Shown here piece after piece: positions 1 through 15,278 of a stretch of 15,278 nucleotides of DNA. The stretch spans positions 1 through 15,278 of the forward strand of contig DATDDN010000106.1 of assembly GCA_036523795.1 (NCBI GenBank). Direction: 5' to 3'. Origin of the DNA: Gallionellaceae bacterium. Its GTDB lineage: Bacteria; Pseudomonadota; Gammaproteobacteria; Burkholderiales; Gallionellaceae. How positions within the stretch are numbered: the first letter of the stretch is position 1; each line of letters begins with the position of its first letter. Made by a program: the position numbers and the translations under genes. The notes under the pieces were generated by a model. It saw nothing but the letters and a program-made list of their open reading frames with translations, did no database searches and was not told the DNA's origin.

Positions 1-1300
1 AGTTGACCAGCACCGGCCCCAGCACGCCGGCTGTGGCCCATGCCGTCAGCAAACGCCCGTGGATGGCGCCCACCATCTGGGTGCCGAAGATGTCGGCCAG
101 ATAGGCCGGCACCGTGGCAAAGCCGCCGCCATACATGGACAGGATGATGCCGAAGGCGGCCACGAACAGCGCCACGTGGCCGGTCTGACCCAGAGTCGGG
201 ATCGACACGTAAAGGATGAAACCGAGCACGAAGAACACGAAGTAGGTGCGCTGGCGGCCGATGTAATCCGAAAATGATGCCCACACGAAACGGCCCGCGA
301 TGTTGAACAGCGACAGCAGTCCGGTGAAGCCCGCAGCGATGGCGGCGATCTGCACCTTCTGCTCCGGCGTCAGCTCATTGAAACTGGCACTGAGCCCGAG
401 CAAGCGGCCGGCAAACACTTCCTGCAGCAGCGGCGAGGCCATGCCCAGCACGCCGATGCCGGCGGTCACATTGAGGCACAGCACGGCCCAGATCAGCCAG
501 AACTGCGGGATGCCCCACACTTTGTTCACATGCACATGCCTGTCGGTGATCATGGCTTTCGCCCTGGGCTCAGGCTCCACCCAGTTGTCCGGTTTCCAGC
601 CTGCGGGCGGCACGCGGTAACCCATGGCGCCGGCCAGCATGAATACAAGATATACAGCCGCCATCACCAGGAAGGTCTCCCACACGCCCACCGAGGTCGG
701 CGTGGCGAAGTGGTGCATCAGCTCGTTGGCCAGCGGTGCGCCTATCATCGCGCCGCCGCCAAAACCCATGATGGCCATGCCGGTGGCCATGCCGCGCCGG
801 TCCGGGAACCATTTGATCAGGGTGGACACCGGCGAGATGTAACCCAGGCCCAGGCCGATGCCGCCGATTACGCCGGAACCCAGCCAGAGCAGGACGATCT
901 GATGCGTGTAGACGCCCAGCGCAGAGATCACCAGGCCGCCAGCCCAGCACAGTGCAGCCACCACGCCAGCCTTGCGCGGGCCGGCATGCTCCAGCCAACC
1001 ACCGAGCAGGGCGGCAGAGGTACCGAGCAGCACGAAGAACAGGGTAAACATCCAGCCCAGCGTGGAAATCTTCCAGTCACAGGTGGTGGAAAACAGCTCT
1101 GCAAAGGAACCCATGTCGCTAGGGCAGACCACCGACTCCTTGATGCCGATGGCGCGCGACAGCGGCAGCCAGAACACGGAGAAGCCATAAGCCATGCCGA
1201 TGCACAGGTGGATGGCCAGCGCCGCCGGCGGCACCAGCCAGCGGTTGTAGCTGGCGTGGGCGATGCTGTGCTCCTTGTCGAGAAAATCCAGAAACGCCAT
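1..1300 (-). CDS. MFS transporter, oxalate/formate antiporter (OFA) family; N-terminal ~433 aa, the 3' end lies left of the window
   Basis: Minus-strand frame starting ATG at 1298-1300 (RBS GGAGAG 5 nt upstream). It translates MAFLDFLDKEHSIAHASYNRWLVPPAALAIHLCIGMAYGFSVFWLPLS..., typical of OFA/OxlT-like MFS permeases with multiple hydrophobic helices. The frame stays open to position 1. Not in the ORF track because it runs off the window. Confidence 0.8.
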   Translation of the reverse strand, partial: MAFLDFLDKEHSIAHASYNRWLVPPAALAIHLCIGMAYGFSVFWLPLSRAIGIKESVVCPSDMGSFAELFSTTCDWKISTLGWMFTLFFVLLGTSAALLGGWLEHAGPRKAGVVAALCWAGGLVISALGVYTHQIVLLWLGSGVIGGIGLGLGYISPVSTLIKWFPDRRGMATGMAIMGFGGGAMIGAPLANELMHHFATPTSVGVWETFLVMAAVYLVFMLAGAMGYRVPPAGWKPDNWVEPEPRAKAMITDRHVHVNKVWGIPQFWLIWAVLCLNVTAGIGVLGMASPLLQEVFAGRLLGLSASFNELTPEQKVQIAAIAAGFTGLLSLFNIAGRFVWASFSDYIGRQRTYFVFFVLGFILYVSIPTLGQTGHVALFVAAFGIILSMYGGGFATVPAYLADIFGTQMVGAIHGRLLTAWATAGVLGPVLVN

Positions 1301-1420
1301 GCGTGCTCTCCCTGCGTAGAGTTGTAAAGAATTCAGGATGCCATGACCTGCCCGCGTACAGAAAACCGGAGCGCGGTCACAGGCGGCGCATGATAACCGT
1401 TTTCATCTGCCCGACACCAT

Positions 1421-3016
1421 TCAGCCTTGCCGGATCGCATCGAACTCCAGCTCAAACCGGGCCAGATATTTGCGCAAGCGGTCGGCATCGTTGGCTTGCT
1501 TCTTCAACTGCCGGGATGCAGAGAACAGCTTGCGGCCAGCCTCTGACAGGCTGGTCGAGTTACGGCACACCTCGATGACCGTGTTGAGCTGGCAGCGATC
1601 GAACATGTCCAGCTCATGACTGCGCGCGCCCAGCACCTGTTCCGCCATATCTTGCTCGACAGGCTCTGCCCAGGCCGCGCGGAGGCGCTCGATTTCTTCC
1701 AGTACGACAGGCTCGGTCACCCGCCCGGCCTCGGCCAGCGTGGCCATGCGTGTCACCGAGGCGGTCAGCTCGCGGAAATTGCCTGGCCAGCGCGCCTCCG
1801 CCGACCGGGCAAAATCCAGATAACGCCGTTTGGCTTCGACATTGAAGCGCACGCGTTCGCCGCTTTCTCCCGCATAACGCTCCAGCTCGAAATCGAGGTT
1901 GGGCTCGATGTCCTCACCGCGCCGCGCCAGACCCAGCAAATCAAATTTCCACATATTGATCCGCGCATAGAGGTCTTCGCGGAACCGTCCTTCCGCCACC
2001 CATTGCTGCAGGTTGCGATGGGTGCCGGCAATCAGCTGGAAGTTGCTCTCCACCTCGCGGTCGCCGCCGAACGGGAAGAAGCGCTTCTCTTCAATGGCCT
2101 TGAGCAGCATGGCCTGTTCGTCCAGCCCCAGCTCGCCGATCTCGTCCAGAAACAGCAGCCCGTCGTCTGCGGCACGCAACAGCCCGGAGCGCTCGCTCTG
2201 TGCGCCGGTAAATGCGCCGCGCACATGTCCAAACAGACTGGACATGGCCGAATCGCCGCGCAGGGTGGCGCAGTTCACTTCGACAAACCTGCCGGACAGG
2301 CGCTGCCGCTGGCGCTTCAACTCATACACGCGGCGAGCCAGGAAAGACTTGCCGGCACCGGTGGGACCGACCAGCAGCATCGGTGCACGCGAACGGCTGG
2401 CGACCTGTTCGATGCGCTCTATGGTGCGGTTGAATTCGGCATTGCGCGTGGCGATACCCGCCTTGAGGAACACCAGCGATTCGTCGTGCTCGCGCGCAAA
2501 GCGCTGAGCAATCTTGTTGTAACGCGACAGATCGAGGTCGATGATTTCATAGCTGCCCACTGAATCGGCCTGCTCTTTCTTGCGCGGCGGCGAAGTTTGC
2601 AGCAGGCGCGCAGGCAGGTAGCGCGCCTCGGCCAGCAGGAACCAGCAGATCTGCGCCACGTGAGTGCCGGTGGTGATGTGGATCAGGTAATCCTCGTGCT
2701 CGATGTCGAACGGGTAGCTGCGCGCCAGGTCGTGCAGCATGGTGTAGACCTCTTCGAAATCCCACGGGTCGCGCAGTTCGATCTGCACCCTGCGCACCTC
2801 GGTCTCCGGCGAAACCGAGGCAATATCGCGGCTCACCCGTTCGGCCAGCGCCGTGCTGCGCGCATCGTGCAGCAGCTCGAAACGGCTCACCAGCAAGTCC
2901 TCCTGCTGGCACAGCGCCACACTGGGACGCCACTTCTCCCAGCGCCCCATGCCTTTGCCGCCATGATCCAGCTGAGTGCCAAGAAATCCGAAAACCACCA
3001 GTCGCTTTTTATCCAT
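1421..3016 (-). CDS. rtcR: Sigma-54-dependent transcriptional activator RtcR (N-terminal CARF-type regulatory domain, central AAA+ sigma-54 activation domain, C-terminal HTH)
   Basis: 531 aa. N-terminus MDKKRLVVFGFLGTQLDHGGKG matches the E. coli RtcR N-terminus pattern (MRKTVAFGFVGTVLDYAG). Central Walker A GPTGAGKS, the GAFTGA sigma-54 contact motif and Walker B LLFLDEIGEL are present. The gene is divergent from an rtcB/rtcA operon. Confidence 0.92.
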   Translation of the reverse strand: MDKKRLVVFGFLGTQLDHGGKGMGRWEKWRPSVALCQQEDLLVSRFELLHDARSTALAERVSRDIASVSPETEVRRVQIELRDPWDFEEVYTMLHDLARSYPFDIEHEDYLIHITTGTHVAQICWFLLAEARYLPARLLQTSPPRKKEQADSVGSYEIIDLDLSRYNKIAQRFAREHDESLVFLKAGIATRNAEFNRTIERIEQVASRSRAPMLLVGPTGAGKSFLARRVYELKRQRQRLSGRFVEVNCATLRGDSAMSSLFGHVRGAFTGAQSERSGLLRAADDGLLFLDEIGELGLDEQAMLLKAIEEKRFFPFGGDREVESNFQLIAGTHRNLQQWVAEGRFREDLYARINMWKFDLLGLARRGEDIEPNLDFELERYAGESGERVRFNVEAKRRYLDFARSAEARWPGNFRELTASVTRMATLAEAGRVTEPVVLEEIERLRAAWAEPVEQDMAEQVLGARSHELDMFDRCQLNTVIEVCRNSTSLSEAGRKLFSASRQLKKQANDADRLRKYLARFELEFDAIRQG

Positions 3017-3111
3017 TTGGATAATTTACTCGATATATATCTATATATTTCAAATTGTCGCACAAGCAACAGCTCTCGCGCTCGAAATTTTACTTATTAA
3101 ATATCATGCGG

Positions 3112-3124
3112 TTATCAATATTTT
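3112..3124. promoter_or_regulatory. IHF-like site (TATCAAtattTTc vs WATCAANNNNTTR) between rtcR and the sigma-54 promoter
   Basis: 12/13 match to the IHF consensus. It lies about 25 nt upstream of the -24 element, where IHF-mediated bending is usual for sigma-54 promoters. An alternating AT tract (cgatatatatctatatattt, 3031-3050) lies further upstream. Confidence 0.3.
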
Positions 3125-3142
3125 CTATCCAACACCCCGGGC

Positions 3143-3158
3143 TGGCACACATTTCGCT
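3143..3158 (+). promoter_or_regulatory. Sigma-54 (-24/-12) promoter, TGGCAC-N5-TCGCT, driving the + strand rtc-type operon
   Basis: Perfect -24 element TGGCAC (3143-3148). GC of the -12 element is at 3156-3157, with the canonical GG-N10-GC spacing. It is adjacent to, and divergent from, the sigma-54 activator gene rtcR. Predicted TSS near 3168-3170. Confidence 0.6.
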
Positions 3159-3285
3159 GTATTGCTGGTGATCGCGGCAAAGCCCCAAAGCCCACGGGCA
3201 GAGGTTGACTAGCCTCTCCGGTGCGCGCCATCCAGGCCCAGGCCGGTCGATGACGTGCATGCCGCTGCTGCAATGTGCGATCGCG

Positions 3286-3334
3286 GGGCAATCTCTGGTG
3301 AGCCCGCCGGGTTCGATTCCCGGATTGCCCACCA
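3286..3334 (+). ncRNA. tRNA-like minihelix: 7-bp acceptor stem (GGGCAAT/ATTGCCC), T-arm (CCGGG-TTCGATT-CCCGG), discriminator A and CCA; no D or anticodon arm
   Basis: Read directly from the sequence. A canonical T-loop TTCGATT is closed by a 5-bp GC stem. A perfectly complementary acceptor stem ends in ACCA at 3331-3334. Only 14 nt (ctctggtgagcccg) replace the D and anticodon arms. It sits in the operon leader downstream of the sigma-54 promoter. Confidence 0.45.
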
Positions 3335-3405
3335 CTGGATAGCTCATTGGGTAGAGCAATCGACTAATCATCGATCTGTCGCGGGTTCGACTCCCGCTCC
3401 ACTGT
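3333..3405 (+). ncRNA. tRNA-like cloverleaf (probable tRNA mimic of the Y-RNA/YrlA type, or a pseudo-tRNA); anticodon position reads AAU
   Basis: Full 73-nt cloverleaf. Acceptor CACTGGA/TCCACTG (6/7 bp, C3-C70 mismatch), U8 and A9. D-arm GCTC-ATTGGGTA-GAGC with G18 and G19. Anticodon arm ATCGA-CTAATCA-TCGAT with U33 but a pyrimidine at position 37 and A34. 5-nt variable loop. T-arm GCGGG-TTCGACT-CCCGC with T54, T55, C56 and A58. No encoded CCA. It overlaps the CCA of the preceding minihelix by 2 nt. Confidence 0.55.
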
Positions 3406-3643
3406 CCTTACACGACAGATATGCAACACCGTAGTACCCGCCGGTTGCGGAATGCGCAAGCACCCGCCGCCGTCCGGGCCGGGCCTGCTGCCACACCGCC
3501 GGCAAGGTCGACAGAAGCAGGAGCGGAATGCTGTGCCGTACGGCAGCACCCGCAAGCGCTCTGCCCAGACCTCCCCGGCCGTGCCGCAGCAGGCACCCGC
3601 CAGGATGGCGCCCGACCGGCACATTTATCGAGGAGAAAGCAAC

Positions 3644-4783
3644 ATGCTGAAACGTTATGTCATCAAGAAAAATGAAAAAGGTTTGCTGTACAAGGACGGC
3701 GACTTCGAGCGCGTCCTCTCTGCAGGCCGCCACCTGTTTGTTGACCCGCTGCGCCGCCTGTCGCTGCAGACTTACCGGATCGACACCCAGATGAACGATG
3801 TATCCCTGGTGGATTACCTGCTCAAGACTGCGCCTGCGCAGGCCAATGAGCACTTTGTGTGCATGGAGCTGGCAGAAGACGAGGCCGGCCTGCGCTATGA
3901 GAACGGCCTGCTGGTCGAGGTGCTGCCGCCTGCCGCACGTCGTGTGTTCTGGAAAGGACTGCTACAGCACCGCCTGGACAAGGCCGACCTGAAGCAGGGA
4001 TACGCGCTGGATGCCCCCCTTGCCGGCCGCCTGGTGCAGACCGGCTTGCGTGGCCGCGCCCTGACCGGACTGACCGGTCTGCTGGTGGTGCAGATTCCCG
4101 CTTACCACGTCGGCATCCTGAAGGTGAACGGCAAGGTACAGCGCGTCCTTGAGCCCGGAGTGGAAGCGTTCTGGCGCTTCAACCGCGAGATCGAGGTAGA
4201 GCTGGTGGACACCCGCCTGCAGAACATGGAAGTCAGCGGGCAGGAGATCCTGACTCACGACAAGGTGGGGCTGCGCCTCAACCTCGCCGCCACCTGGCGC
4301 TACACCGATGCGCTGCAGGCGTTCGAAAAGCTGGTGAAGCCTGCCGAGCACCTGTACCGCGAGCTTCAGTTCGTGCTGCGTGCCGCAGTCGGAACACGCA
4401 GCCTGGATGAGCTGCTGGAAAACAAGCAGGTGATCGACGAGCTGGTCATCGCCCACGTCACCCGCAAGTTCGCCGGCTTCGGCATCGAGGTGACCAGCGC
4501 CGGCGTGAAGGACATCGTGCTGCCGGGCGAGATGAAGACCATCCTCGCCCAGGTGGTGGAGGCCGAGAAGTCGGCGCAGGCCAATGTGATCCGTCGCCGC
4601 GAGGAGACCGCAGCCACCCGTTCGCTGCTGAACACCGCCAAGGTGATGGAGGACAACCCCACCGCCCTGCGACTGAAAGAGCTGGAAACACTGGAGCGCG
4701 TGGCCGAGCGTATCGACCGCATCAGCGTATTCGGTGGACTGGACCAGGTGCTGAATGGCCTGGTGCAGATTCGCGGCGACTAA
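3644..4783 (+). CDS. SPFH/band-7 (stomatin-prohibitin-flotillin-HflK/C) domain protein, 379 aa; no N-terminal transmembrane segment, so apparently cytoplasmic
   Basis: ATG at 3644 with RBS GAGGAG 8 nt upstream. Canonical SPFH core (…IPAYHVGILKVNGKVQRVLEPGVEAFWRF…QEILTHDKVGLRLNLAATWRYTD…SLDELLENKQVIDELVIAHVTRKFAGFGIEVTSAGVKDIVLPGEMK…) is followed by a predicted coiled-coil. The N-terminal ~50 aa (VIKKNEKGLLYKDGDFERVLSAGRHLFVDP) look like a second, partial copy of the SPFH N-terminal strand region. The ORF-track start at 3452 only adds an Arg/Pro-rich, low-complexity extension typical of GC-rich non-coding DNA. Confidence 0.8.
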   Translation: MLKRYVIKKNEKGLLYKDGDFERVLSAGRHLFVDPLRRLSLQTYRIDTQMNDVSLVDYLLKTAPAQANEHFVCMELAEDEAGLRYENGLLVEVLPPAARRVFWKGLLQHRLDKADLKQGYALDAPLAGRLVQTGLRGRALTGLTGLLVVQIPAYHVGILKVNGKVQRVLEPGVEAFWRFNREIEVELVDTRLQNMEVSGQEILTHDKVGLRLNLAATWRYTDALQAFEKLVKPAEHLYRELQFVLRAAVGTRSLDELLENKQVIDELVIAHVTRKFAGFGIEVTSAGVKDIVLPGEMKTILAQVVEAEKSAQANVIRRREETAATRSLLNTAKVMEDNPTALRLKELETLERVAERIDRISVFGGLDQVLNGLVQIRGD

Positions 4784-4788
4784 GCCAT

Positions 4789-4810
4789 GGGCACGCCTGA
4801 TTGCGTGCCC
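4789..4810 (+). other. Intercistronic perfect hairpin GGGCACGC-ctgatt-GCGTGCCC (8-bp stem) with no U-tract
   Basis: Seen directly, 6 nt after the SPFH stop (4781-4783) and 18 nt before the next start codon. No downstream T-run, so more likely an mRNA processing or stability element, or a partial attenuator, than a terminator. Confidence 0.4.
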
Positions 4811-4827
4811 ACTTACCGGAGAACATC

Positions 4828-5238
4828 ATGACAAGTGGAAAACAGCGGCGTGCAGCCATCAAGGCAGCACGTTTGCGCCGGGAATTCAGGCAACAAGCGG
4901 CATTACGTGAAACGACCATGCCATCCTTGCTGCCCTTGCATACCGCAGCCGTCAACCCGGCCTGCCTGGCACCCTACAACAGCTATGGCGAGCCGGATTT
5001 CGTCAACCGCGGTTACTATCAGGACCAGCCGTTCGTGTGCGTGGATTGCGGCGCACCGGGGGTATGGAGCGCGCAGCGGCAAAAATGGTGGTATGAAATA
5101 GCCAAGGGCAACGTCTGGTCCTGCGCCATCCGCTGCCCCACCTGCCGTGCGCGACGCCGCGCCATCAGCGCAGAAGGGCGCCGCACCTGGATGGAAGGCA
5201 TGAAACACAAGCAGGCTGCCTCGCAGCCTGCCAAATAA
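4828..5238 (+). CDS. Small basic zinc-ribbon protein (136 aa) with two CxxC pairs (CVDC…CPTC), function unknown
   Basis: ATG at 4828 with GGAGAA 6 nt upstream. N-terminus Lys/Arg-rich (MTSGKQRRAAIKAARLRREFRQQ). FVCVDCGAP…(28 aa)…CAIRCPTCR forms a 4-Cys Zn-ribbon-like motif. Tightly packed between the SPFH gene and rtcB: 13 nt to the rtcB start, versus 44 nt after the SPFH stop. Confidence 0.6.
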   Translation: MTSGKQRRAAIKAARLRREFRQQAALRETTMPSLLPLHTAAVNPACLAPYNSYGEPDFVNRGYYQDQPFVCVDCGAPGVWSAQRQKWWYEIAKGNVWSCAIRCPTCRARRRAISAEGRRTWMEGMKHKQAASQPAK

Positions 5239-5251
5239 CAAGGAAACAGTT

Positions 5252-6469
5252 ATGGAACATCAAATTCTCGAGGTAGCCCACGGCAAGCCGATCAAGATGT
5301 GGACCCAGGGGGTGCCCGTTGAAGACGAGGCACGCCAGCAACTGATGAACACGGCACGGATGCCGTTCATCTTCAGCCACATTGCCGTGATGCCGGACGT
5401 GCATCTGGGCAAGGGGTCGACCATCGGCAGCGTGATCCCCACCCGTGGCGCCATCATTCCGGCAGCCGTCGGCGTGGACATCGGCTGCGGCATGATGGCG
5501 GCGCGCACCTCGCTCAAGGCGAGCGACCTGCCAGACTATCTGCACGGCCTGCGCAGCGCTATCGAGCGGGCTGTGCCGCATGGCCGCACCAGCACACGCA
5601 GCGGGCGTGACAAAGGTGCCTGGGATACGCCGCCGACAAGCGTGGATGCAATGTGGGGTGAACTGGTACCGGGCTTCAAGCGCATCATCGAGAAGCACCC
5701 GCGCCTGGCCAAAACCAACAACCACAAGCACCTGGGAACGCTTGGAACCGGTAACCACTTCATCGAAGTGTGCCTGGACGAGACCGACACGGTGTGGTTC
5801 ATGCTGCATAGCGGTTCGCGTGGTGTCGGGAATGCCATCGGCACCCACTTCATCGAACTGGCCCAGGCCGACATGCGCCAGCACATTGCCAATCTCCCGG
5901 ATCGCGACCTCGCCTATTTCGAAGAAGGCAGCTCACACTTCGCCGATTATGTCGAGGCGGTGGGGTGGGCGCAGGATTACGCGCGGCGCAATCGTGCAGT
6001 GATGATGCAGAACGTGGTTGCGGCTGCACGCCAGGTGATCGCCAAGCCGTTCGATGCCAGCGTGGAAGCGGTGAATTGCCACCACAACTATGTGCAGAAG
6101 GAAACGCATTTCGGCAGTGAGATTCTGGTCACCCGCAAGGGAGCTGTGTCCGCGCGCAAGGGTGAGCTCGGCATCATTCCCGGCTCGATGGGGGCAAAAA
6201 GCTACATCGTGCGCGGACTCGGCAACGAGGAATCGTTCTGCTCGTGCAGCCATGGTGCCGGCCGTACCATGAGCCGCAATGAAGCAAAGCGCCGCTTTAC
6301 GCTGGAAGACCAGATCGGTGCGACGGCCCATGTGGAGTGCCGCAAGGACGAGGCAGTGATCGACGAAATCCCGATGGCCTACAAGGACATCGATGCCGTG
6401 ATGGAAGCGCAGCGCGCCCTGGTGGAAGTCGTGCATACCCTGCGTCAGGTGGTATGCGTGAAGGGATGA
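5252..6469 (+). CDS. rtcB: RNA-splicing ligase RtcB (3'-phosphate/5'-hydroxyl RNA ligase)
   Basis: 405 aa, collinear over its whole length with E. coli RtcB. Examples: KMWTQGVPVE, MPFIFSHIAVMPDVHLGKGSTIGSVIPT, HLGTLGTGNHFIE, NCHHNYV, GNEESFCSCSHGAGR, TLRQVVCVKG. RBS AAGGAAA. Confidence 0.96.
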   Translation: MEHQILEVAHGKPIKMWTQGVPVEDEARQQLMNTARMPFIFSHIAVMPDVHLGKGSTIGSVIPTRGAIIPAAVGVDIGCGMMAARTSLKASDLPDYLHGLRSAIERAVPHGRTSTRSGRDKGAWDTPPTSVDAMWGELVPGFKRIIEKHPRLAKTNNHKHLGTLGTGNHFIEVCLDETDTVWFMLHSGSRGVGNAIGTHFIELAQADMRQHIANLPDRDLAYFEEGSSHFADYVEAVGWAQDYARRNRAVMMQNVVAAARQVIAKPFDASVEAVNCHHNYVQKETHFGSEILVTRKGAVSARKGELGIIPGSMGAKSYIVRGLGNEESFCSCSHGAGRTMSRNEAKRRFTLEDQIGATAHVECRKDEAVIDEIPMAYKDIDAVMEAQRALVEVVHTLRQVVCVKG

Positions 6470-6488
6470 ACAATTTCAGGAGAAGGAT

Positions 6489-7316
6489 ATGCAACACAAC
6501 AAGCCCGCCATACTGAGTGCGCACCCCATCGCACCCGAGGTGCGACAGCGAGTCATGCAGGCACTCGACGACATCGAGGCCAGGCACGACGTGCAAGTGC
6601 TGTTCGCTTGCGAATCCGGCAGCCGCGGCTGGGGTTTCGCCTCGCCGGACAGCGACTACGATGTGCGCTTCGTATACACGCACCGGCTGCCCTGGTATTT
6701 GAACGTGGAGCCGCAGCGCGATGTGATCGAACTGCCGATCAGCGACGAGCTGGACGTGAGCGGCTGGGAGCTGCGCAAAGCCTTGCGGCTGCTGCGCAGA
6801 TCCAATCCGACCCTGCTGGAATGGCTGGACTCGCCCGTGGTCTATCGCGAGAATCCGGCCGCAGCGGCACGCATGCGTACGCTCGCGCCGGATTTCTTTT
6901 CCAGGCTCAGCGTGCGCTACCACTATCTGGCGATGGCGAAGAAGAACTTTCGCGGCTATCTGCAGGGAGAGTCGGTGCGTCTGAAGAAATACCTGTATGT
7001 ATTGCGGCCCCTGCTCGCAGTGCGCTGGATAGACCGTGGCGGCGGAATGCCGCCCATGCGCTTTGCCGAGCTGGCGGATGCCATGCTTGATGACCTGCCC
7101 CTGCTGGGCGAGATCAATCGGCTGCTCGCCATCAAGATGCAGGCCAACGAGGCGGAATACAGCCCGCGCTGGCCGCTGGTGCACGCATTTATCGTCAGCG
7201 AACTGGAAAAGGTCGAGCGGCAGCTTGACTACAAAAAACCCGTGGGTGACTCGGGCGCGCTGGACCGATTTCTGGCGGATACCGTGCTGTCCTTCACGGC
7301 ACAGCAACTGATTTGA
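6489..7316 (+). CDS. Pol-beta-superfamily nucleotidyltransferase (GS…DxD minimal NTase; from memory it resembles the RtcB-linked RlaP/PF10127-type family)
   Basis: 275 aa. Motif FACESGSRGWGFASPDSDYDVRFVY is the GS-X9-13-DxD nucleotidyltransferase signature. RBS AGGAGAAGG. It lies between rtcB (stop 6469) and rtcA (start 7328) with 19 and 11 nt spacers, so it is an operon member. Confidence 0.85.
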   Translation: MQHNKPAILSAHPIAPEVRQRVMQALDDIEARHDVQVLFACESGSRGWGFASPDSDYDVRFVYTHRLPWYLNVEPQRDVIELPISDELDVSGWELRKALRLLRRSNPTLLEWLDSPVVYRENPAAAARMRTLAPDFFSRLSVRYHYLAMAKKNFRGYLQGESVRLKKYLYVLRPLLAVRWIDRGGGMPPMRFAELADAMLDDLPLLGEINRLLAIKMQANEAEYSPRWPLVHAFIVSELEKVERQLDYKKPVGDSGALDRFLADTVLSFTAQQLI

Positions 7317-7327
7317 GGTAACAAGAA

Positions 7328-8341
7328 ATGAAATTTCTGCTTCTCGATGGCGCCCACGGTGAAGGGGGCGGCCAGATCCTGCGCAGCGCGCTCACGCTTT
7401 CGATGATCACCGGACAGCCGTTCCGCATCGAGCGCATTCGCGCCGGGCGCAACAAGCCTGGCCTGTTGCGCCAGCACCTGACCGCAGTCAATGCTGCCGC
7501 CAGCATCTGCTCTGCAAGGGTCGGCGGCAATGCTGCCGGTTCGCAAACGCTGGAATTCATTCCCGGCCGCGTCAAGGGCGGGGATTACCGGTTTGACATC
7601 GGCACCGCCGGCAGTTGCACCTTGGTGCTGCAGACCGTGCTGCCCGCCTTGTGGTTTGCCGATCAGCCCAGCAGCCTGACCGTCAGCGGCGGCACGCACA
7701 ACGCTGCCGCGCCGCCGGCTGATTTTCTGATGCGCACCTGGCTGCCCGCGATGCAGCGCATGGGCGTCGACACGCATCTCGAGCTGCTGCGGCACGGCTT
7801 CTATCCGGCCGGAGGTGGCGCGGTACGCGCCAGCGTGCGTCCGCTAGCCGCCCTGCAGCCCTTGCACATGACGGAGCCCGGCCGCTCGGCTTCGGTACAG
7901 GCCATCGCCATAGTCGCCGCGTTGCCGGGCGATATTGCACGGCGCGAACTGACACGCCTGCGGCATCATTTCCCGGAGGCTGCGGAAGAAATGCGCGTGC
8001 TCGATGCCCGCGAAGGCCCGGGCAATGTGGTCATGCTCGAAGTGGCGCGCGACAATCACCGCGAGATTTTCAGTGCCTTCGGCGAGCGTGGCGTGAAGGC
8101 CGAGCTGGTCGCCGAACGCGCGGCCGGAGAGGCGCTACGCTACCTGGCCAGCAGGGCCTGCGTCAGCGAGCACCTGGCCGACCAGCTGGTGCTGCCCCTC
8201 GCACTGGCGGGTGGCGGCAGCTTTACGACCACGACGGTGTCGTCGCACCTTGCCAGCAACATGCAGGTCCTCCAGAAGTTCCTGCCGGTCGGGTTTGAGA
8301 TAACGCAGAACGGGGATATCCCGCAGATCGTTGTGCGATAA
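7328..8341 (+). CDS. rtcA: RNA 3'-terminal phosphate cyclase RtcA
   Basis: 337 aa. LDGAHGEGGGQILRSALTLSMITGQPFRIERIRAGRNKPGLLRQHLTAV… and GSCTLVLQTVLPALWFAD…LLRHGFYPAGGG…ADQLVLPLALAGGG are collinear with E. coli RtcA. Confidence 0.94.
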   Translation: MKFLLLDGAHGEGGGQILRSALTLSMITGQPFRIERIRAGRNKPGLLRQHLTAVNAAASICSARVGGNAAGSQTLEFIPGRVKGGDYRFDIGTAGSCTLVLQTVLPALWFADQPSSLTVSGGTHNAAAPPADFLMRTWLPAMQRMGVDTHLELLRHGFYPAGGGAVRASVRPLAALQPLHMTEPGRSASVQAIAIVAALPGDIARRELTRLRHHFPEAAEEMRVLDAREGPGNVVMLEVARDNHREIFSAFGERGVKAELVAERAAGEALRYLASRACVSEHLADQLVLPLALAGGGSFTTTTVSSHLASNMQVLQKFLPVGFEITQNGDIPQIVVR

Positions 8342-8515
8342 TTTGTCAGCCGTTTCCCCTGCTTCCAGTAGGGGATCTTCCCCAGGTTCACCCTCGCAAA
8401 TACCCCCTTCGGGGCATGGCCATCTACCACCAAGGTAAGCCACACCGAATGCCCGCGCAGTCTTATACTTGCAACTGAACTTTGCGGTTCTTTCGCTTAC
8501 TAACTGTCCGTGACC

Positions 8516-9631
8516 ATGTCCGAAAAGCTCATCCACATCGTCGATCACCGTCCCGGCATCCGCATGCCGCGGCTGGCTGGCGCGCTGGAGCAGCCCAGCG
8601 GTTCACTGCGCGACAGCCGTGGCCGCCTGCTGCAGGACCTGCGCATCTCGCTCACCGACCGCTGCAACTTCCGTTGCGTGTACTGCATGCCGAAGGAAAC
8701 CTTCGACAAGGATCACGTGTTCCTGCCGCGCAGCTCGCTGCTCAGCTTCGAAGAGATCGAGCGCATCGCGCGCATCTTCGTGGCGCATGGCGTGCACAAG
8801 ATCCGCCTCACCGGCGGCGAGCCGCTGCTGCGCAAGCACATCGAACAGCTGATTGAGCGCCTGGCACAACTGCGCACCCCGGACGGCCTGCCGCTCGACC
8901 TTACCCTCACCACCAATGGCTCACTGCTGGCGAAGAAGGCACGTGCCTTGAAAGACGCCGGGCTGAGCCGTGTCACCGTGTCGCTCGACTCGCTCGACGA
9001 CACCATCTTCCGCCGCATGAACGACGTCGACTTCCCCGTGTCGGAAGTGCTGCATGGCCTGGAAGCCGCGCACGAAGCCGGCCTCGGCCCGATCAAGGTG
9101 AACATGGTGGTGAAGGGCGGCATGAACGACCAGGAGATCGTGCCGATGGCGCGCTACTTCAAGGGCTCGCCGTTCATCCTGCGCTTCATCGAATACATGG
9201 ACGTCGGCACTTCCAACGGCTGGAAGATGGATGAGGTGATTCCCTCCGCCGAAGTGGTGCGCCGCATCCACGCCGAACTGCCGCTGGAAAAACTTGACCC
9301 CAACCAGCCCAGCGAAACCGCCGCGCGCTGGCGCTATGCCGATGGCTCCGGCGAGATCGGCGTCATCTCCAGCGTGACCCAGAGCTTCTGCCACGAATGC
9401 ACCCGAGCCCGCCTCTCCACCGAAGGTGTGTTGTACCACTGCCTGTTTGCCAGCGAAGGCCATGACCTGCGCGCCCTGCTGCGCGACGGCAGCAGCGACG
9501 AGGCCATCTCCAGCATCATCGCCCAGCTGTGGCGCGCGCGCAGCGACCGCTATTCCGAACTGCGCAGCCAGCAGACCGAGTACGCCGCACCCGAGCGCAA
9601 GCGGGTGGAGATGTCGTATATCGGTGGCTAA
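8516..9631 (+). CDS. moaA: GTP 3',8-cyclase MoaA (radical-SAM, molybdenum cofactor biosynthesis)
   Basis: The [10 protein letters not shown] radical-SAM cluster motif, …LTGGEPLL…, and the C-terminal [21 protein letters not shown]…MSYIGG match E. coli MoaA. An alternative in-frame GTG start at 8510 (MTMSEK) is possible. Confidence 0.93.
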
Positions 9632-9799
9632 CCCCTCCACCAGCCATTTCCCGCTCTAGTTACAAGCAGCAGCCTTCATCGCATGGCGTATACTCGGCTG
9701 ATTTCTCGATTGATAATTCGAGCCTGGCCCCTTTGATTCACTAGACTCTCTTCGGCTGGCAACTTATAGATTTTTTGACCAACGGTCGCAGAGGTAGAA

Positions 9800-10036
9800 A
9801 TGCAGGCCAAGAAAAATAAAATTTACGCAACAAGTAAGAGAGTTAAATCCGCGCTCGTTGGCATAACCAAACATATGATGCTCAATTATATTTTGTTTAA
9901 TTATGTTGATAAGAATAAATGGGTTGATGAGCTGAAAGCGTCTTTTGGAGTTCCATTTGTCGACAATCGAACAGATTTCAACTACTCGAAGTGTTTTTTT
10001 ACTGCATTAATCAAAGAGGCCTTGAACTTGGTTTAA
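9800..10036 (+). CDS. Hypothetical protein, 5' part of a low-GC gene that appears split by a -1 frame change at a T7 run
   Basis: ATG with RBS GAGGTAGAA. GC content drops sharply (about 35% vs about 65% in the surroundings). The ORF ends 36 nt after the run TTTTTTT (9994-10000). The downstream ORF continues in the -1 frame from the same run. Confidence 0.4.
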   Translation: MQAKKNKIYATSKRVKSALVGITKHMMLNYILFNYVDKNKWVDELKASFGVPFVDNRTDFNYSKCFFTALIKEALNLV

Positions 10037-10392
10037 CTTCTAGCCAGTTTTATGAGTACTTGCAGGAGCACGGGATATTGGATCGCGTGTTTATACAAAT
10101 TTCTACACTTGCTCCATTTGTAACCTATGAATACATGCAATATCAATTTATAAAAAACGATGCGCCTGGAATACATAAGAACCGACAAATTCATTTAAAG
10201 AGAAATCCTAGCCCTAACAATGAATTCAAAAAATTCGTTGAGTCCGGGATGCAGAAATTTTGCGAGGATAACGAACTCTATATTCTCGAAGATCAGGATT
10301 TGCGCATGAGAGTTGAAGGGGTATCGTTAGAGTTGTCAAAAGATCAAGCGACAGTTTTCAATTTTTTCTTTGACGACGAGAGCAAGGAATAG
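9991..10392 (+). CDS. Hypothetical protein, 3' part of the same low-GC gene (-1 frame relative to 9800..10036)
   Basis: Open frame of 133 aa with no recognisable motif. Its in-frame start codon is only a GTG inside the T-run, so the 3' part is more plausibly read by frameshift from the upstream ORF than started independently. Confidence 0.4.
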   Translation: MFFYCINQRGLELGLTSSQFYEYLQEHGILDRVFIQISTLAPFVTYEYMQYQFIKNDAPGIHKNRQIHLKRNPSPNNEFKKFVESGMQKFCEDNELYILEDQDLRMRVEGVSLELSKDQATVFNFFFDDESKE

Positions 10393-10517
10393 TTGTCGGC
10401 ACAATTGGAACCTACCTTGCGTTGTGCGTGTAAAGGTGCTGAATCTCCAACGCCCAATTTCAATGGACCGGATTAGAGGGTCGAATCTGCGCCAATCAGC
10501 ATAGTGTGCGCATTAAC

Positions 10518-10805
10518 CTAGAAATCCAACGGGTCCACATCCAGCGACCAGCGCAGCTTCCACGCACGCAGGAACTGCTGCAATGACTTGCGCGTGGCGG
10601 CGGGCACCACGCCGTACACTTCCACTTCACCCTGCACCGCCGTGGCAGCCGCATGCGCCTGCTGCGTGAAGGCATACACCTCGCCTTCGTTCTTGACCTC
10701 TGCCCGCAACAGCGCCTGGAGCACGAACGGAGGGAAGCCGGCCTGTTCGCGCTCGGCCAGCAGGGTGCGCGCCCAGGCCTCATAGTCGTGGACGATCAGC
10801 GCGCG
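10518..10805. repeat. Diverged direct repeat, copy A, of the priA 3'-terminal 369 bp (partner at 11890-12258)
   Basis: Manual alignment. Homology begins exactly at the stop codon and ends near 10805 / 12258. Copy A lacks 30 nt and 51 nt; the second deletion is bounded by TGGCGGC direct repeats. Confidence 0.7.
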
Positions 10806-10895
10806 GCCGTCAGGCGGAAAGAAGCTACGCAGCCAAAAATGGATCCTAAATTGGGTGGACACCTGGCGTACTCTCATGACAACTAGCCCAGCCAT
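10518..10895 (-). pseudogene. Relic of the priA 3' end: a novel 31-aa N-terminus fused to a shortened copy of the last ~94 codons of PriA
   Basis: Translation …ALIVHDYEAWARTLLAEREQAGFPPFVLQALLRAEVKNEGEVYAF…LRWSLDVDPLDF parallels the PriA C-terminus encoded at 11890-12258. Two in-frame deletions (30 and 51 nt), about 9% substitutions, and TAG vs TAA stop. A strong terminator sits immediately upstream of its ATG, so independent expression is unlikely. Confidence 0.6.
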
Positions 10896-10899
10896 CCGT

Positions 10900-10934
10900 A
10901 AAAAAGCAGAACCCGGAACACGGGTTCTGCTTTT
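10900..10934. terminator. Bidirectional rho-independent terminator: A6 - GCAGAACCCG-gaaca-CGGGTTCTGC - T4
   Basis: Perfect 10-bp GC-rich stem with a 5-nt loop, flanked by an A-run on the left and a T-run on the right. About 100 nt downstream of the stop of the minus-strand gene 11031-11651. Confidence 0.7.
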
Positions 10935-11030
10935 ACTCCTGCTGCTTCAGGTTTGAACTCGGGCTGTCACACAGCCTGTGTCCTCCAATCATCTGATGAG
11001 GTCAAAACCCCGTCAAATGACAAACCTTTA

Positions 11031-11651
11031 CTATTTCGCGTTGGCTACGGTATATGTGCCCACGCCGCCATGACCTGTGCCATAGGCAACAATCTTGACT
11101 GGCTGCGTAAAGCCGCCGCCCGACAATACAGTGCCAATTTCAAGGTGGCCAGACGCAATTGCCGTTACAGTCAGTGTGTTGCCAGACAGCGTGCCGGTCA
11201 TCACCAATTTGTTACCGTTATCGCCGTTATTTTCATGGTCCTTTTCTAACCCCTTCTTCTTGCCGTTATCCATTCCATTCTTCTTGCCGCGACCTTGTTG
11301 GTCTTCGTCAATGGAGCCAGTGATAGCCGTCGACGTCGGTACCGGGGCTGGGGCAGCCACTGGGACCGGATCTGGTGCAACTACTGGAGCTGGCGCAACT
11401 GCCGCAGTAGTACTTGTGGTTGTAGTTGGAGCAGTTGCAGTAGTTGTGGTTGGAGCAGTGGTAGTAGTTGTGATTGTGGTTGTGGTTGTAGGCGGACACA
11501 GCACAACTCCTGGCGGAAGAATCATGCCGGGGGGAAGGGTCGTGGTCCCGGGCGGCAGAGGAAAGCACGACAGTGTCTGTGCAGCCACAATTGGAGAGTT
11601 CGACAGCACAGCCAGGAATGCGGTGGCAACTGCGTACTTAGCGATTTTCAT
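11031..11651 (-). CDS. Secreted hypothetical protein with a signal peptide, a Thr/Pro/Ala-rich mucin-like low-complexity linker, a Lys/Asn/Gly-rich charged segment and a small C-terminal Gly-rich domain
   Basis: RBS AAGGAG 7 nt before the ATG. N-terminus [26 protein letters not shown] looks like a Sec signal with an AxA-type cleavage site. T5-T6 runs ([28 protein letters not shown]) are encoded by imperfect tandem nucleotide repeats. A terminator follows the stop. Confidence 0.7.
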
Positions 11652-11831
11652 ATTAACTCCTTATTCAAAATTTAATACAGCAAACAGGTGCGACTTCTTC
11701 CTGACTGAATGATGACTCAGGATAAATGTCTAGTGCAATGCCCATTGGATAGCCGGGGTTCCTAACATGACCAGCGGCCACTCTTCTGCATCAACGGTTA
11801 TCTATTTACGACGAACGGCGCCACAAGCACT

Positions 11832-11843
11832 TGACAATTGTCA
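11832..11843. promoter_or_regulatory. Perfect 12-bp palindrome TGACAATTGTCA (overlapping a TTGACA hexamer) upstream of the secreted-protein gene and just past the priA stop
   Basis: Seen directly. It is a 5-2-5 inverted repeat about 190 nt upstream of the ATG at 11651, a candidate operator for an unknown dimeric regulator. It does not match the LexA, CRP or FNR consensus. Confidence 0.25.
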
Positions 11844-11889
11844 CCTCATGATGGATTTCGGCTCAGTTGGCTGATCACCTTGTCGGCCT

Positions 11890-12258
11890 TTAGAAATCCA
11901 GCGGGTCCACATCCAGCGACCAGCGCAGTTTCTGCGCCGGCAGCGCATCCAGCTGCGGCTTCCAGGCGCGCAGGAACTGCTGCAGCGCCTTGCGCGTGGC
12001 GGCCTGCACCAGCAGCTGCACCAGGTAGTGGTTGGCGCGCTTGGGCATGGCGGCGGGCACCACGCCGTACACTTCCACTTCGCCCTGCACGGCCGTGGCG
12101 GCCGCATGTGCCTGCTGCATAAAGGCGTACACCTCGCCTTCGTTCTTGCCCTCTGCCCGCAACAGTGCCTGGAACACGAACGGCGGGAAACCGGCCTGTT
12201 CGCGCTCGGCCAGCAGGGTGCGCGCCCAGGCTTCGTAGTCGTGCGCGATCAGCGCGCG
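11890..12258. repeat. Direct repeat copy B, the intact 3' end of priA (partner at 10518-10805)
   Basis: See copy A. This copy is contiguous with full-length priA. Confidence 0.7.
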
Positions 12259-14094
12259 GAACAGGGGATGCTCGGGAAAGGCGGTCTGCACCAGCACTTC
12301 GCCCGGCTTGTCGGCACGGCCGGCGCGACCGGCCACCTGTGACAGCTGGGCGAACAGTTTTTCCGAGGCGCGAAAGTCGCTGCTGTACAGCGCGCTATCC
12401 GGGTTGAGCACGCCCACCAGGGTGAGGTTCGGAAAGTCGTGACCCTTGGCCAGCATCTGGGTGCCCACCAGGATGTCCACCGCATCATCCTGGATCTTCT
12501 TGCGCATGGCGGCCCAGCTGCCCTTGTTGCGCGTGCTGTCGCGATCCACCCGCAGGATTCTGGCCTCAGGGAAGTGTGCCTGCAGCGCCGCCTCGATGCG
12601 CTGGGTGCCGATGCCGACCGGCTGCAGGTCGGTGTTGCCGCAGGAGGGACAGGCGTGCGGCACGCGCTGCTGATGGCCGCAGTGGTGGCAGCGCAGGCGG
12701 CGGTCCCTCAGGTGCAACACCAGCTTGCCCGCGCAATGGGGGCAGCCGGACAGCCAGCCGCAGGCGGTGCACATCAGCACCGGCGCATGGCCGCGGCGGT
12801 TGATGAACACCAGGCTTTGTTCCTTGCGCTGCAGGCGCTCACCCAGGGCGGCGAGCAGGGCCGGCGTCATGCCTTCGTGCAGCGGCACGGTGGTGGTGTT
12901 GAGGCAGCGCACCTCGGGCAGGCGCGCCTGCTGGTTGGCGCGCTGGCGCAGCGGCAGCAGGGTGTAGCGCCCGCTGTGCGCGTTGTGCCAGCTTTCCAGC
13001 GAGGGGGTGGCCGAGCCGAGCACGATGGGGACCGATCTTTGATTCGCTCGGAAGATGGCCACGTCGCGCGCCGAATAGCGCAGGCCGTCCTGCTGCTTGA
13101 ACGAGGCATCATGCTCTTCGTCCACGATGATCAGGCCCAGCTCGGGTAGCGGAGTGAATACTGACAGGCGGGTGCCCAGCACGATGCGCGCCTGCCCCGA
13201 CTGCGCGCGCAACCAGTTCTGTGTGCGCTCACCCTCGCTGAGGCCGCTGTGCAGGCTGACCAGCTCGGTCTGCGGGAAGCGGCTCTGGAAGTAATGCTCC
13301 AGCTGCGGGGTGAGGTTGATCTCAGGCACCAGCAGCAGCACTTGGCCACTGCGCTGCAGGAAGTGGTGCATCAGGTGCACGTAGACTTCGGTCTTGCCGC
13401 TGCCGGTGATGCCGTACAGCAGGAAGCTGGCATAGCCTGCGGAGCGGGTGACGGGGTCGACCGCCTGTTGCTGTTCGTCGGTGAGGGTGTGGGCGTTTTC
13501 AAACGCGACTTGGGTGAGTTCGCCCGCTGCCTTGGCATGCTCAGGCGACGATGTTGGCGCACACTCCCGAGCCCAACCGGTTTCCAGCAATGCCTTCAGT
13601 GTGGCCATCGCACTGGGCGAGAGCGCACGCACCTGCTGCGCGCCCAGCGGGCCGGCCTGCAGGGCCGCCAGGATGCGGTGCTGGACCACCTTGCGCTTGG
13701 GCAGCTGCGCCAGATCGAGCGCGCGTCCTGCTTCACTCAGTTCATAAGTCAGCGCCCGCTTCAGCGTGACAGGCTCGCCGCTGCGCACGCGCGCAGGCAG
13801 CGCGGCAAGTACGGTCATACCGAGTGGATGCTGGTAATAGTCGCTACAGAAGCGCAGCAGCTTGAGCAGGTCGGCGGGCAACGGCGGCACGTCGTCCAGC
13901 ACTTGCTGCACCGCTTTGATGCGCTCGGCGGGAACATCGGTTTCACTCAGGCACTCAAGCACCACGCCGACCATCTGCTGGCGGCCGAACGGCACCAGCA
14001 CGCGTTGCCCCACCACTGCAGTGAAATTTTCCGGCAGAAAATAATCAAACAGTGTTGACAGCGGCACGTCGAGTGCAACGCGAACAAAATTCAT
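11890..14094 (-). CDS. priA: Primosomal protein N' (replication-restart helicase PriA)
   Basis: 734 aa. N-terminus MNFVRVALDVPLSTLFDYFLPE (E. coli [22 protein letters not shown]). Walker A GITGSGKTEVY, DEEHD, the Cys-rich Zn-binding region CTACGWLSGCPHCAGKL…CHHCGHQQRVPHACPSCG, and a C-terminal …LDVDPLDF. Confidence 0.95.
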   Translation of the reverse strand: MNFVRVALDVPLSTLFDYFLPENFTAVVGQRVLVPFGRQQMVGVVLECLSETDVPAERIKAVQQVLDDVPPLPADLLKLLRFCSDYYQHPLGMTVLAALPARVRSGEPVTLKRALTYELSEAGRALDLAQLPKRKVVQHRILAALQAGPLGAQQVRALSPSAMATLKALLETGWARECAPTSSPEHAKAAGELTQVAFENAHTLTDEQQQAVDPVTRSAGYASFLLYGITGSGKTEVYVHLMHHFLQRSGQVLLLVPEINLTPQLEHYFQSRFPQTELVSLHSGLSEGERTQNWLRAQSGQARIVLGTRLSVFTPLPELGLIIVDEEHDASFKQQDGLRYSARDVAIFRANQRSVPIVLGSATPSLESWHNAHSGRYTLLPLRQRANQQARLPEVRCLNTTTVPLHEGMTPALLAALGERLQRKEQSLVFINRRGHAPVLMCTACGWLSGCPHCAGKLVLHLRDRRLRCHHCGHQQRVPHACPSCGNTDLQPVGIGTQRIEAALQAHFPEARILRVDRDSTRNKGSWAAMRKKIQDDAVDILVGTQMLAKGHDFPNLTLVGVLNPDSALYSSDFRASEKLFAQLSQVAGRAGRADKPGEVLVQTAFPEHPLFRALIAHDYEAWARTLLAEREQAGFPPFVFQALLRAEGKNEGEVYAFMQQAHAAATAVQGEVEVYGVVPAAMPKRANHYLVQLLVQAATRKALQQFLRAWKPQLDALPAQKLRWSLDVDPLDF

Positions 14095-14388: not shown

Positions 14389-15278
14389 TTAATGGTATTT
14401 ACGGCTGAGCTCATGCACTGCGGCCACTAGGGCTGCGGCATTGGCCGGGTCGGTAAATTGCGAGATGCCATGGCCGAGGTTGAACACGTGGCCGCTGCCG
14501 AAACCGTAACTGGCCAGGATTTTTTCCACTTCGTCGTTGATGACTTCCGGATTGGAAAACAGCACGGCGGGGTCGAGGTTGCCCTGCAAGGCCACCTTCT
14601 GGCCAACGCGCTGACGTGCCACGCCGATGTCCATGGTCCAGTCCAGGCCGACCGCATCGCAGCCGATGTCGGCGATGCTGTCTATCCACAGACCCCCGCC
14701 CTTGGTGAACACGATGGAGGGGATGCGCACGCCGTCCTTCTCCTTCTTCAGGCCCTGTACGATGCGCTGCATATAGGCCAGGGAGAACTGATGGTAGGCC
14801 GCGTGCGACAGCGCGCCGCCCCAGGAATCGAAAATCATCACGGCCTGCGCGCCGGCGTCGATCTGCGCATTGAGGTACTGCGTCACCGCTTCGGCGGTTA
14901 CCGCCAGCACGTGGTGCATCAGCGCCGGTTCCTTGTACATCAGGGTTTTGACGCGAGCATAGTCGGAGCTGCTGCCGCCTTCCACCATGTAGCAGGCCAG
15001 CGTCCACGGGCTGCCGGAAAAGCCGATCAGCGGCACGCGGCCGTCCAGCGCCTTGCGGATCTCGGACACGGCGTCGGTGACGTAGCGCAGATCCTTGTCG
15101 ATGTCGGGCAGGCGCAGCGCCTTGATGGCGGCTTCGTCATGCAGCGGGTGCTTGAACTTGGGGCCTTCGCCTTCGGTGAAGTACAGGCCGAGACCCATCG
15201 CATCGGGCACGGTGAGGATGTCGGAGAACAGGATGGCGGCATCCAGCGGGAAACGGTCCAGCGGCTGCAGGGTCACCT
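14389..15278 (-). CDS. hemE: Uroporphyrinogen decarboxylase HemE (C-terminal ~296 aa; the 5' end lies right of the window)
   Basis: …[33 protein letters not shown]…[19 protein letters not shown]…[25 protein letters not shown]…HVFNLGHGI…SRKYH is collinear with E. coli HemE. The frame stays open to the window edge. Confidence 0.93.

Follow-up and report, generated by a model that had tools for sequence, protein, structure and literature searches.

An orphan priA 3' end in a Gallionellaceae contig and its likely origin in homology-driven import of an allelic gene end with its neighbour

How does a conserved gene come to have a second, decayed copy of its own 3' end lying downstream of it, on the far side of an unrelated gene? 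The question is raised by a contig of 15,278 nt (DATDDN010000106.1, NCBI 'MAG TPA: Gallionellaceae bacterium'; MAG, metagenome-assembled genome), which was analysed over its whole length and is referred to here as the window. It carries an intact gene for the replication-restart helicase, priA, whose functional 3' end (copy A) recurs as an orphan fragment (copy B), and the insert between the two copies holds a gene for a secreted protein, referred to here as sec. The reading favoured in this study, with a probability of roughly 0.55, is that copy B is an orphan priA end left behind by the import of an allelic priA end together with sec through homology within priA.

Copies A and B form a direct repeat on the coding (minus) strand of priA, 10519-10806 against 11891-12259, in a MAFFT alignment as well as in the output of a repeat finder. 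They lie about 1.4 kb apart, with B downstream of the real priA. The copies differ by 22 substitutions over 287 aligned positions (92.3% identity, which is not background similarity), they share exact stretches longer than 31 nt, and the two alignment gaps, of 30 nt and 51 nt, are both in copy B. A first-pass annotation made from the sequence alone had described a copy of the priA 3' end with these same gaps, and the alignment confirms it. That annotation had also placed the start of the homology exactly at the stop codon; the edge is indeed there, but the homology begins at the second base of the codon, the stops being TAG in B and TAA in A. The 5' edge is a codon boundary in both copies (priA codon 613). 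Copy A restores the priA reading frame, giving a protein of 734 aa with all domains, and this protein is 100% identical to protein P0001 of the NCBI MAG TPA Gallionellaceae.

One caveat is that the window is a MAG contig, and this together with the long exact stretches shared by the copies would favour an assembly chimera joining two strain haplotypes. However, two read-derived Logan contigs from other samples match this part of the window, L081 (3 samples) at 100% identity over 10749-12077 and L082 at 99.9% over 10685-11891. Both cross the junction from insert to fragment, and neither reaches the two deletions. Additionally, at that junction non-homologous DNA abuts mid-priA sequence, an outcome that shared k-mers cannot produce, and the deletions in B are absent from the working priA alleles of relatives. 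Since independent Logan contigs span the junction, the repeat arrangement is real and is not a MAG assembly chimera, an explanation to which next to no credence is given. L082 stops exactly at the priA stop codon, where the A/B homology begins. This end could be a graph branch, as would arise if sample DRR101460 contained haplotypes that differ in the DNA following priA.

The substitutions between the copies indicate where they diverged. There are 18 synonymous and 5 non-synonymous differences (synonymous divergence, dS, 0.31; non-synonymous divergence, dN, 0.024; dN/dS 0.077; Nei-Gojobori), whereas under neutrality about three quarters would be expected to be non-synonymous (binomial p = 1.3e-7 against neutrality). 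This synonymous excess and the low dN/dS show that A and B diverged mostly as parts of working priA genes in separate lineages. The two copies are also equally distant from all outgroups, as would be expected of sister alleles; each is 77.7% identical to the closest relative, L093 (GCA_035720805.1, PriA 83% identical). The first-pass proposal that one copy is a replacement gene end and the other a resident one agrees with this allelic relationship. When the sites matching L093 were counted by halves of the repeat, the ratio of A to B was 7:3 in the 5' half and 2:7 in the 3' half (Fisher p = 0.07). Sliding-window identity of priA against L093 and against L083 (GCA_025408405.1, PriA 82%, the closest long relative) gave no breakpoint at codon 613, and in all such comparisons the PriA C-terminal domain is the more diverged part.

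These values bear directly on a local origin of the repeat, in which the priA end was tandemly duplicated in situ, or copied by unequal crossing-over, and one copy then decayed neutrally; the first-pass annotation had kept this as a fallback in the form of an old unequal recombination. Direct repeats only 1.4 kb apart would suit such an event, and short repeats flank the deletions, as is typical of decay. However, copies that diverged after a duplication would not have a dN/dS of 0.077, and the sequences past the two stop codons are unrelated (Smith-Waterman score 16, shuffle mean 14.3). A second copy of the insert, which this model predicts, is not present in the window. The fallback is therefore contradicted by the dN/dS and the unrelated flanks and is left with a very slim chance, and local duplication and assembly artefact are both effectively excluded.

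Ten outgroup PriA sequences were used to polarise the gaps. All ten align gap-free across both segments missing from B, and therefore both gaps are deletions in B and not insertions in priA. The fragment lacks PQLDALPAQK and MPKRANHYLVQLLVQAA, of which the latter is the conserved PriA_C core, and its Pfam PriA_C match is partial (profile positions 1-50 of 95). Additionally, four of the five amino-acid differences between the copies (A>V, F>L, G>V and M>T) are derived in B relative to the outgroups, which fits a short later phase of relaxed constraint on this copy. Because of these derived changes and the loss of the PriA_C core, B is the dead copy, a priA pseudogene fragment. In the NCBI annotation it is a 114-aa hypothetical protein, VIU93_10215 (P0173).

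The fragment is open and in frame, as the first-pass annotation had pointed out in calling it diverged yet still open, but no selection is needed to explain this. The 51-nt deletion has a 7-nt repeat at its ends, TGGCGGC (GCCGCCA in the coding sense), as the first-pass annotation had seen correctly, and the 30-nt deletion is bounded by GAAGC-type microhomology, provided that the ancestor read CAGAAGCTG as in L083. In priA, which is rich in G and C at third codon positions, direct repeats of 5-8 nt lying no more than 100 nt apart are in phase 62-86% of the time. Since short repeats in priA are mostly in phase, in-frame slippage deletions are expected without selection. A mechanically called open reading frame (ORF) of 125 aa covers B and extends 30 codons into the insert. 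Its ATG lies 4 nt past the U-tract of a strong terminator and is not preceded by a Shine-Dalgarno sequence, and on these sequence features it is probably not expressed. Selection holding B open was considered and rejected, given that in-phase repeats explain the in-frame deletions and that the ORF begins right after the terminator.

Which of the two copies was the resident one is suggested by the DNA that follows them. In L093, GGTTAGTGCGCAGATT... lies directly past the priA stop, and the flank of B is homologous to it, with a blastn match of 86.5% over 74 nt spanning the stop codon. For the 38-nt flank by itself the Smith-Waterman score is 32 (shuffle mean 13.9, sd 2.3), and none of 1000 shuffles scored as high. 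The flank of A has no match to the L093 sequence downstream of priA. The match of its flank to the DNA downstream of priA in L093 is the reason for reading B as, most likely, the displaced resident priA end, although the same kind of flank would also be expected on a B that had been imported. A tandem array, (GCGCAGATT)n, stands directly past the L093 priA stop (L093 2579-2625), and a degenerate version of it is kept after B.

The mirror-image event has to be weighed at this point. In that case priA with end A and sec would be resident, and B, its flank and a low-GC gene beyond it would have been imported with moaA as the anchor and joined illegitimately downstream of the sec terminator. It yields the same final structure, B is contiguous with clearly foreign low-GC DNA, and linkage of priA to sec is shared with another contig (L091, described below). 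However, most of the length of priA, its body, and the flank of B are both closest to L093, and the history is simpler if B and its flank were resident. A stretch of intermediate GC also separates the L093-like flank of B from the low-GC gene, so that their joint arrival is not required. The mirror-image event is considered improbable.

A candidate for the site before insertion was found in L083, in which hemE and priA are followed by convergent moaA and an MFS gene and the spacer between priA and moaA is 287 nt, which gives the comparison with an empty site that the first-pass annotation had proposed. This is a candidate empty site from a different species, since its PriA is 82% identical. 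Relative to L083 the window has two extra blocks, an Rtc RNA-repair cluster and the longer priA-moaA spacer of 2.26 kb.

The insert itself was expected from the first-pass annotation to hold only a low-complexity secreted-protein gene and a terminator, and this was borne out. The terminator folds at -22.6 kcal/mol (z = -4.55; 0 of 200 shuffles as good) and follows the 206-aa sec gene. The insert has no similarity to the L083 spacer or to the L093 flank. The sec family has 16 database homologues in which the N- and C-terminal parts are conserved. It is a small uncharacterised family, apparently mostly of Nitrosomonadales or Gallionellaceae-like organisms, with a C-terminal domain of about 55 aa that is rich in Gly and turns up in many contigs from freshwater metagenomes. 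The domain also occurs in phage tail-fibre proteins, and in sec it matches tail-fibre PHROG 38233 at 8.5e-9. The closest homologue (62% aa identity, in L091) is immediately preceded by the final 32 nt of a priA gene, and no second priA fragment was found in the 1.25 kb past it on this single 2.1-kb contig. This one contig suggests that priA-sec exists elsewhere as an ordinary chromosomal arrangement, as would be expected of a donor haplotype. More distant family members are in unrelated contexts, and of 80 loci recovered from metagenomes with the sec family alignment, none has priA nearby.

The first-pass annotation had proposed that the repeat is the scar of a site-specific integrative element at the priA terminus, from which no integrase is visible. 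The absence of an integrase was upheld: Pfam scans of 9632-11889 gave no recombinase remnant in five translated frames, nor in the sixth, which consists of the sec gene and the fragment ORF and was scanned separately. The other large ORFs of the 15.3-kb contig that were scanned gave no recombinase either. The window has no intI gene, and attC sites were not searched for with a dedicated model. A second priA end occurs in none of 82 related priA loci. The PriA C-terminus was not found in IMG/VR viral contigs, and phage and plasmid collections gave no match to the priA end; viral, phage and plasmid scans with the priA end, sec and the low-GC gene returned only weak matches to the sec C-terminal domain. 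A 30-mer conserved in both copies had no exact match in JGI metagenomes, and a search with the C-terminal 122 aa found nothing above 78% identity except the fragment in the window.

The element proposed in that annotation would be a remnant of the type of e14 or phage 21 at icd, with an attP-borne priA end, a tyrosine or serine recombinase, a core within the last 369 nt and only one cargo gene kept. Direct repeats of a gene end bracket the insert and the priA frame is restored, the copies are allelic as are icd and icdC (PMC13626634), and L083 offers a candidate empty site. The weak switch of L093 affinity in the middle of the repeat (Fisher p = 0.07) would also fit a crossover inside it, and in L084 (PriA 80%) a truncated integrase-family ORF lies 40 nt past the priA stop, after which the contig ends (L084 12251-12772; Pfam Phage_int_SAM_4). 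However, this truncated ORF (ending ...LLYGTGMRL) is presumably integron integrase (IntI)-like, and L084 has no priA duplicate. Integrases of the IntI type do not integrate by gene-end replacement. The last ~45 nt of L084 contain Illumina adapter sequence, AGATCGGAAGAGC, an assembly contaminant. Beyond the absence of a recombinase gene or remnant from the insert, the spacer and the large ORFs scanned elsewhere on the contig, there is just one gene with its terminator in the insert, the closest cargo homologue stands after priA in L091 without another att-like copy in the next 1.25 kb, a duplicated priA end is in 0 of 82 related loci, the PriA C-terminus is in no viral contig, and a shared segment of 369 nt is long for an attachment (att) site. 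A remnant of this type is unlikely, though it keeps a real share of the probability. Further, the priA terminus might serve as attB for undescribed tiny non-autonomous modules, each made of sec and the 369-nt priA end and mobilised in trans by an integrase with its gene at another place, with the sec gene of L091 as a second independent member; this is a distinctly doubtful idea.

An arrangement in which cargo is bracketed by two allelic copies of a host segment can arise either from a circle that carries this segment or from one homologous crossover combined with one illegitimate join. In the import favoured here, the module would consist of the allelic 369-nt priA 3' end and the adjacent sec gene, from a related Gallionellaceae lineage with a natural priA-sec order. 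It would have recombined into the priA-moaA spacer, with the incoming end A now completing priA and the resident end B displaced and deprived of function. Copy B would then have gained the four non-conservative amino-acid changes and the two repeat-mediated deletions. The join may have been a single Campbell-type crossover with a circularised fragment, or a homologous crossover with an illegitimate join (homology-facilitated illegitimate recombination, HFIR); neither would need an integrase. In the predicted resident state, the GGTTAATGCGCA flank would adjoin a B-type priA end that is intact, and sec would be absent. In agreement with what is expected of HFIR or a single crossover, the repeat has sharp edges at the stop and at codon 613, and the cargo is unrelated to the spacers of relatives. 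Because no recombinase was found, the duplication recurs in 0 of 82 loci, no viral PriA end exists among the contigs searched, the priA-sec pair in L091 is unduplicated, and there is experimental precedent for such events, homology-driven import is favoured over an element. This suggests that a homology-driven insertion-duplication at the variable priA-moaA locus is more likely than a dedicated integrative element. The logic of a displaced gene end put forward in the first-pass annotation thus survives, through the allelic ends, the decaying copy B, its L093-like flank and the site in L083, but the dedicated, site-specific element is not supported and is the less likely mechanism.

Several points weigh against this import. 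The best available PriA relatives are 83-79% identical and there is no closer genome for comparison, so that the donor haplotype and a same-species empty site were not seen, and the residency of B depends on a 38-nt flank and parsimony. A circular intermediate of 1.45 kb would have no demonstrated source. At the joint, 10806/10807, one C is all that is common with the priA context, and the microhomology expected of an illegitimate joint could be judged only against the donor sequence past it. Frame-restoring repeats of a gene 3' end are exactly what an integrase-borne element leaves, and the mirror-image event, with B and the low-GC segment imported on a moaA anchor, gives the same structure. 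The change of L093 affinity within the repeat hints at a crossover there, though it is not significant.

The spacer between priA and moaA is variable beyond this one insert. The content after priA differs in every relative inspected (L083, the P0003 contig, L084, L092 and L093): in the P0003 contig a 149-aa ORF and a YafQ-type toxin-antitoxin pair lie between priA and moaA, in L092 a lipoprotein gene is downstream of priA, and in L093 a different ORF is there. In the window, a low-GC segment lies just outside the repeats, against a background GC of ~65%; it was not mentioned in the first-pass annotation. The segment holds one gene of ~197 aa that is frameshift-split at a T7 run (~9993-9999) into ORFs 9800-10036 and 9991-10392. 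This gene gave no family match above noise in profile scans and was not found in viral contigs. On its composition the segment is foreign, and it marks the priA-moaA spacer as a variable hot spot. A third priA-end remnant beside moaA, which would be expected under tandem island accretion, was not found.

Some features of the relatives concern assembly quality. In L083 moaA is called as two ORFs (12465-13579), and in L092 gltB, gltD and priA are each split (1188-10336). These are probably frameshift errors of assembly and a source of spurious short 'PriA_C-only' proteins in databases. Such proteins on long contigs were considered as further duplicates, and the one checked, P0165 (L092), is a frameshift-split priA in a long-read assembly.

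Gene order in the window (Table 1) was taken from the ORF listing and Pfam, and the first gene was named through its match to L083. The moaA gene is 79% identical to that of L083. The Rtc cluster (rtcR, SPFH/band-7, rtcB, an RlaP-family nucleotidyltransferase gene and rtcA) separates the MFS gene from moaA, which are adjacent in L083, and this is a second insertion/deletion difference from L083 on a short contig. The leader of the Rtc operon has a sigma-54-like -24/-12 motif, TGGCACacattTCGC, at 3143-3157 and a tRNA-Ile call with the unusual anticodon AAT at 3333-3407 (ARAGORN; Rfam tRNA 53 bits). A second T-arm/acceptor-like end, GGTTCGATTCCCGG...CCACCA, lies at 3310-3334 directly before this tRNA-Ile(AAT) gene. 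We take the arrangement to resemble the tRNA-like Y RNAs of rsr-rtcBA operons; however, a Ro/Rsr gene is not present, and Rfam Y-RNA families gave no match.

Table 1. Positions of the features of the window, in the order of the contig
Feature	Position	Strand	Remarks
MFS transporter gene end	1-1327		Match to L083
Rtc RNA-repair cluster	1421-8341	rtcR (-), others (+)	rtcR, then SPFH/band-7 gene, rtcB, RlaP-family gene, rtcA; Pfam
moaA	8510-9631	+	Pfam Radical_SAM and Mob_synth_C; convergent with priA; far side of the variable spacer
priA-moaA spacer, 2.26 kb	9632-11889		
Low-GC segment (36-41%)	9650-10450	+	Beyond the repeat pair, on the moaA side of copy B
Flank downstream of copy B	10480-10517	-	Homologous to the L093 priA-downstream flank (TAGGTTARTGCGCA...GCGCAGATT)
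Copy B, orphan priA 3' fragment (95 codons and TAG)	10518-10806	-	Two segments lost; four derived amino-acid changes
Mechanically called 125-aa ORF over copy B	10518-10895	-	Extends 30 codons into the insert
Insert between the repeats, 1,084 nt	10807-11890	-	238-nt leader/promoter region, sec gene, terminator, 96-nt tail
Intrinsic terminator of sec	10900-10934	-	14-bp perfect stem, 5-nt loop, U6
sec gene, 206-aa secreted protein	11031-11651	-	Signal peptide, CxPLPPG...C motif, Thr/Pro/Ala-rich linker, conserved 55-aa C-terminal domain
Intact priA (primosomal protein N', 734 aa)	11890-14094	-	Pfam PriA_3primeBD, DEAD, Helicase_C, Zn_ribbon_PriA, PriA_C
Copy A, functional priA 3' end (last 122 codons and TAA)	11891-12259	-	Gap-free alignment to all outgroup PriA C-termini
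hemE	14389-15276	-	Cut at the contig end

Read in this way, the locus would be a natural record of a conserved essential gene that served as the homology anchor for importing a neighbouring accessory gene. From the 288-nt fragment one can read in what order things happened, that the copies are allelic in origin and, probably, the resident flank. In practical terms, the annotation of VIU93_10215 should become that of a priA pseudogene fragment, and the priA-moaA spacer stands out as a hot spot of gene flux in the Gallionellaceae. This priA may have a foreign origin in its last 122 codons, which would make the gene a mosaic, and this matters where priA is used as a phylogenetic marker.

The closest natural parallel in structure is icd/icdC of E. 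coli K-12, produced by e14 or phage 21, in which the 3' end of a housekeeping gene is the target, an allelic end replaces it and the displaced fragment lies at the far end of the insert. In the case of e14, the incoming end is allelic, the displaced end is a C-terminal pseudogene, and the differences between the two are mostly synonymous or conservative (PMC13626634). However, e14 is 15 kb long, has its own integrase and excises on SOS induction, whereas the insert in the window measures 1.08 kb, its cargo is one gene, and no recombinase was found in it. The repeat is also longer here (369 nt) than in e14, and the orphan B has already lost 81 nt.

A second parallel is insertion-duplication or HFIR, in which one homologous exchange in a conserved gene brings in foreign DNA without the help of a dedicated recombinase, in keeping with none being found here. 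Conjugation experiments in E. coli gave true HFIR events less often than single crossovers between the chromosome and circular DNA homologous to a gene end, and these single crossovers left duplications of 109-950 bp at the end of lacZ (PMC3240628). Those precedents are plasmid events in the laboratory, whereas the event proposed here is natural, with a putative donor and intermediate. Displacement of 3' ends of the HFIR type has also been proposed for V. cholerae loci that encode type VI secretion system (T6SS) effectors and for Rhs loci (PMC5361080). As in the T6SS arrays and the orphan modules of Rhs and contact-dependent inhibition (CDI) loci, the incoming module shares a conserved upstream region and the old 3' end is shifted downstream. 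In polymorphic-toxin loci, however, the displaced ends are variable toxin domains that form strings of orphans, and immunity genes are selected, whereas in the window it is an essential helicase whose conserved C-terminal domain was displaced, a single occurrence with no visible function.

The locus also resembles chromosomal hot spots of gene flux, in that the spacer content varies and the window has two unrelated foreign pieces, the sec module and the low-GC gene. When hot spots turn over by double homologous crossover, a duplicated piece of a core gene is not normally left behind. Unlike such turnover, the priA scar records an imprecise event. Among these known systems, the priA fragment is a fresh instance of a known recombination scar and involves no new system or mechanism.

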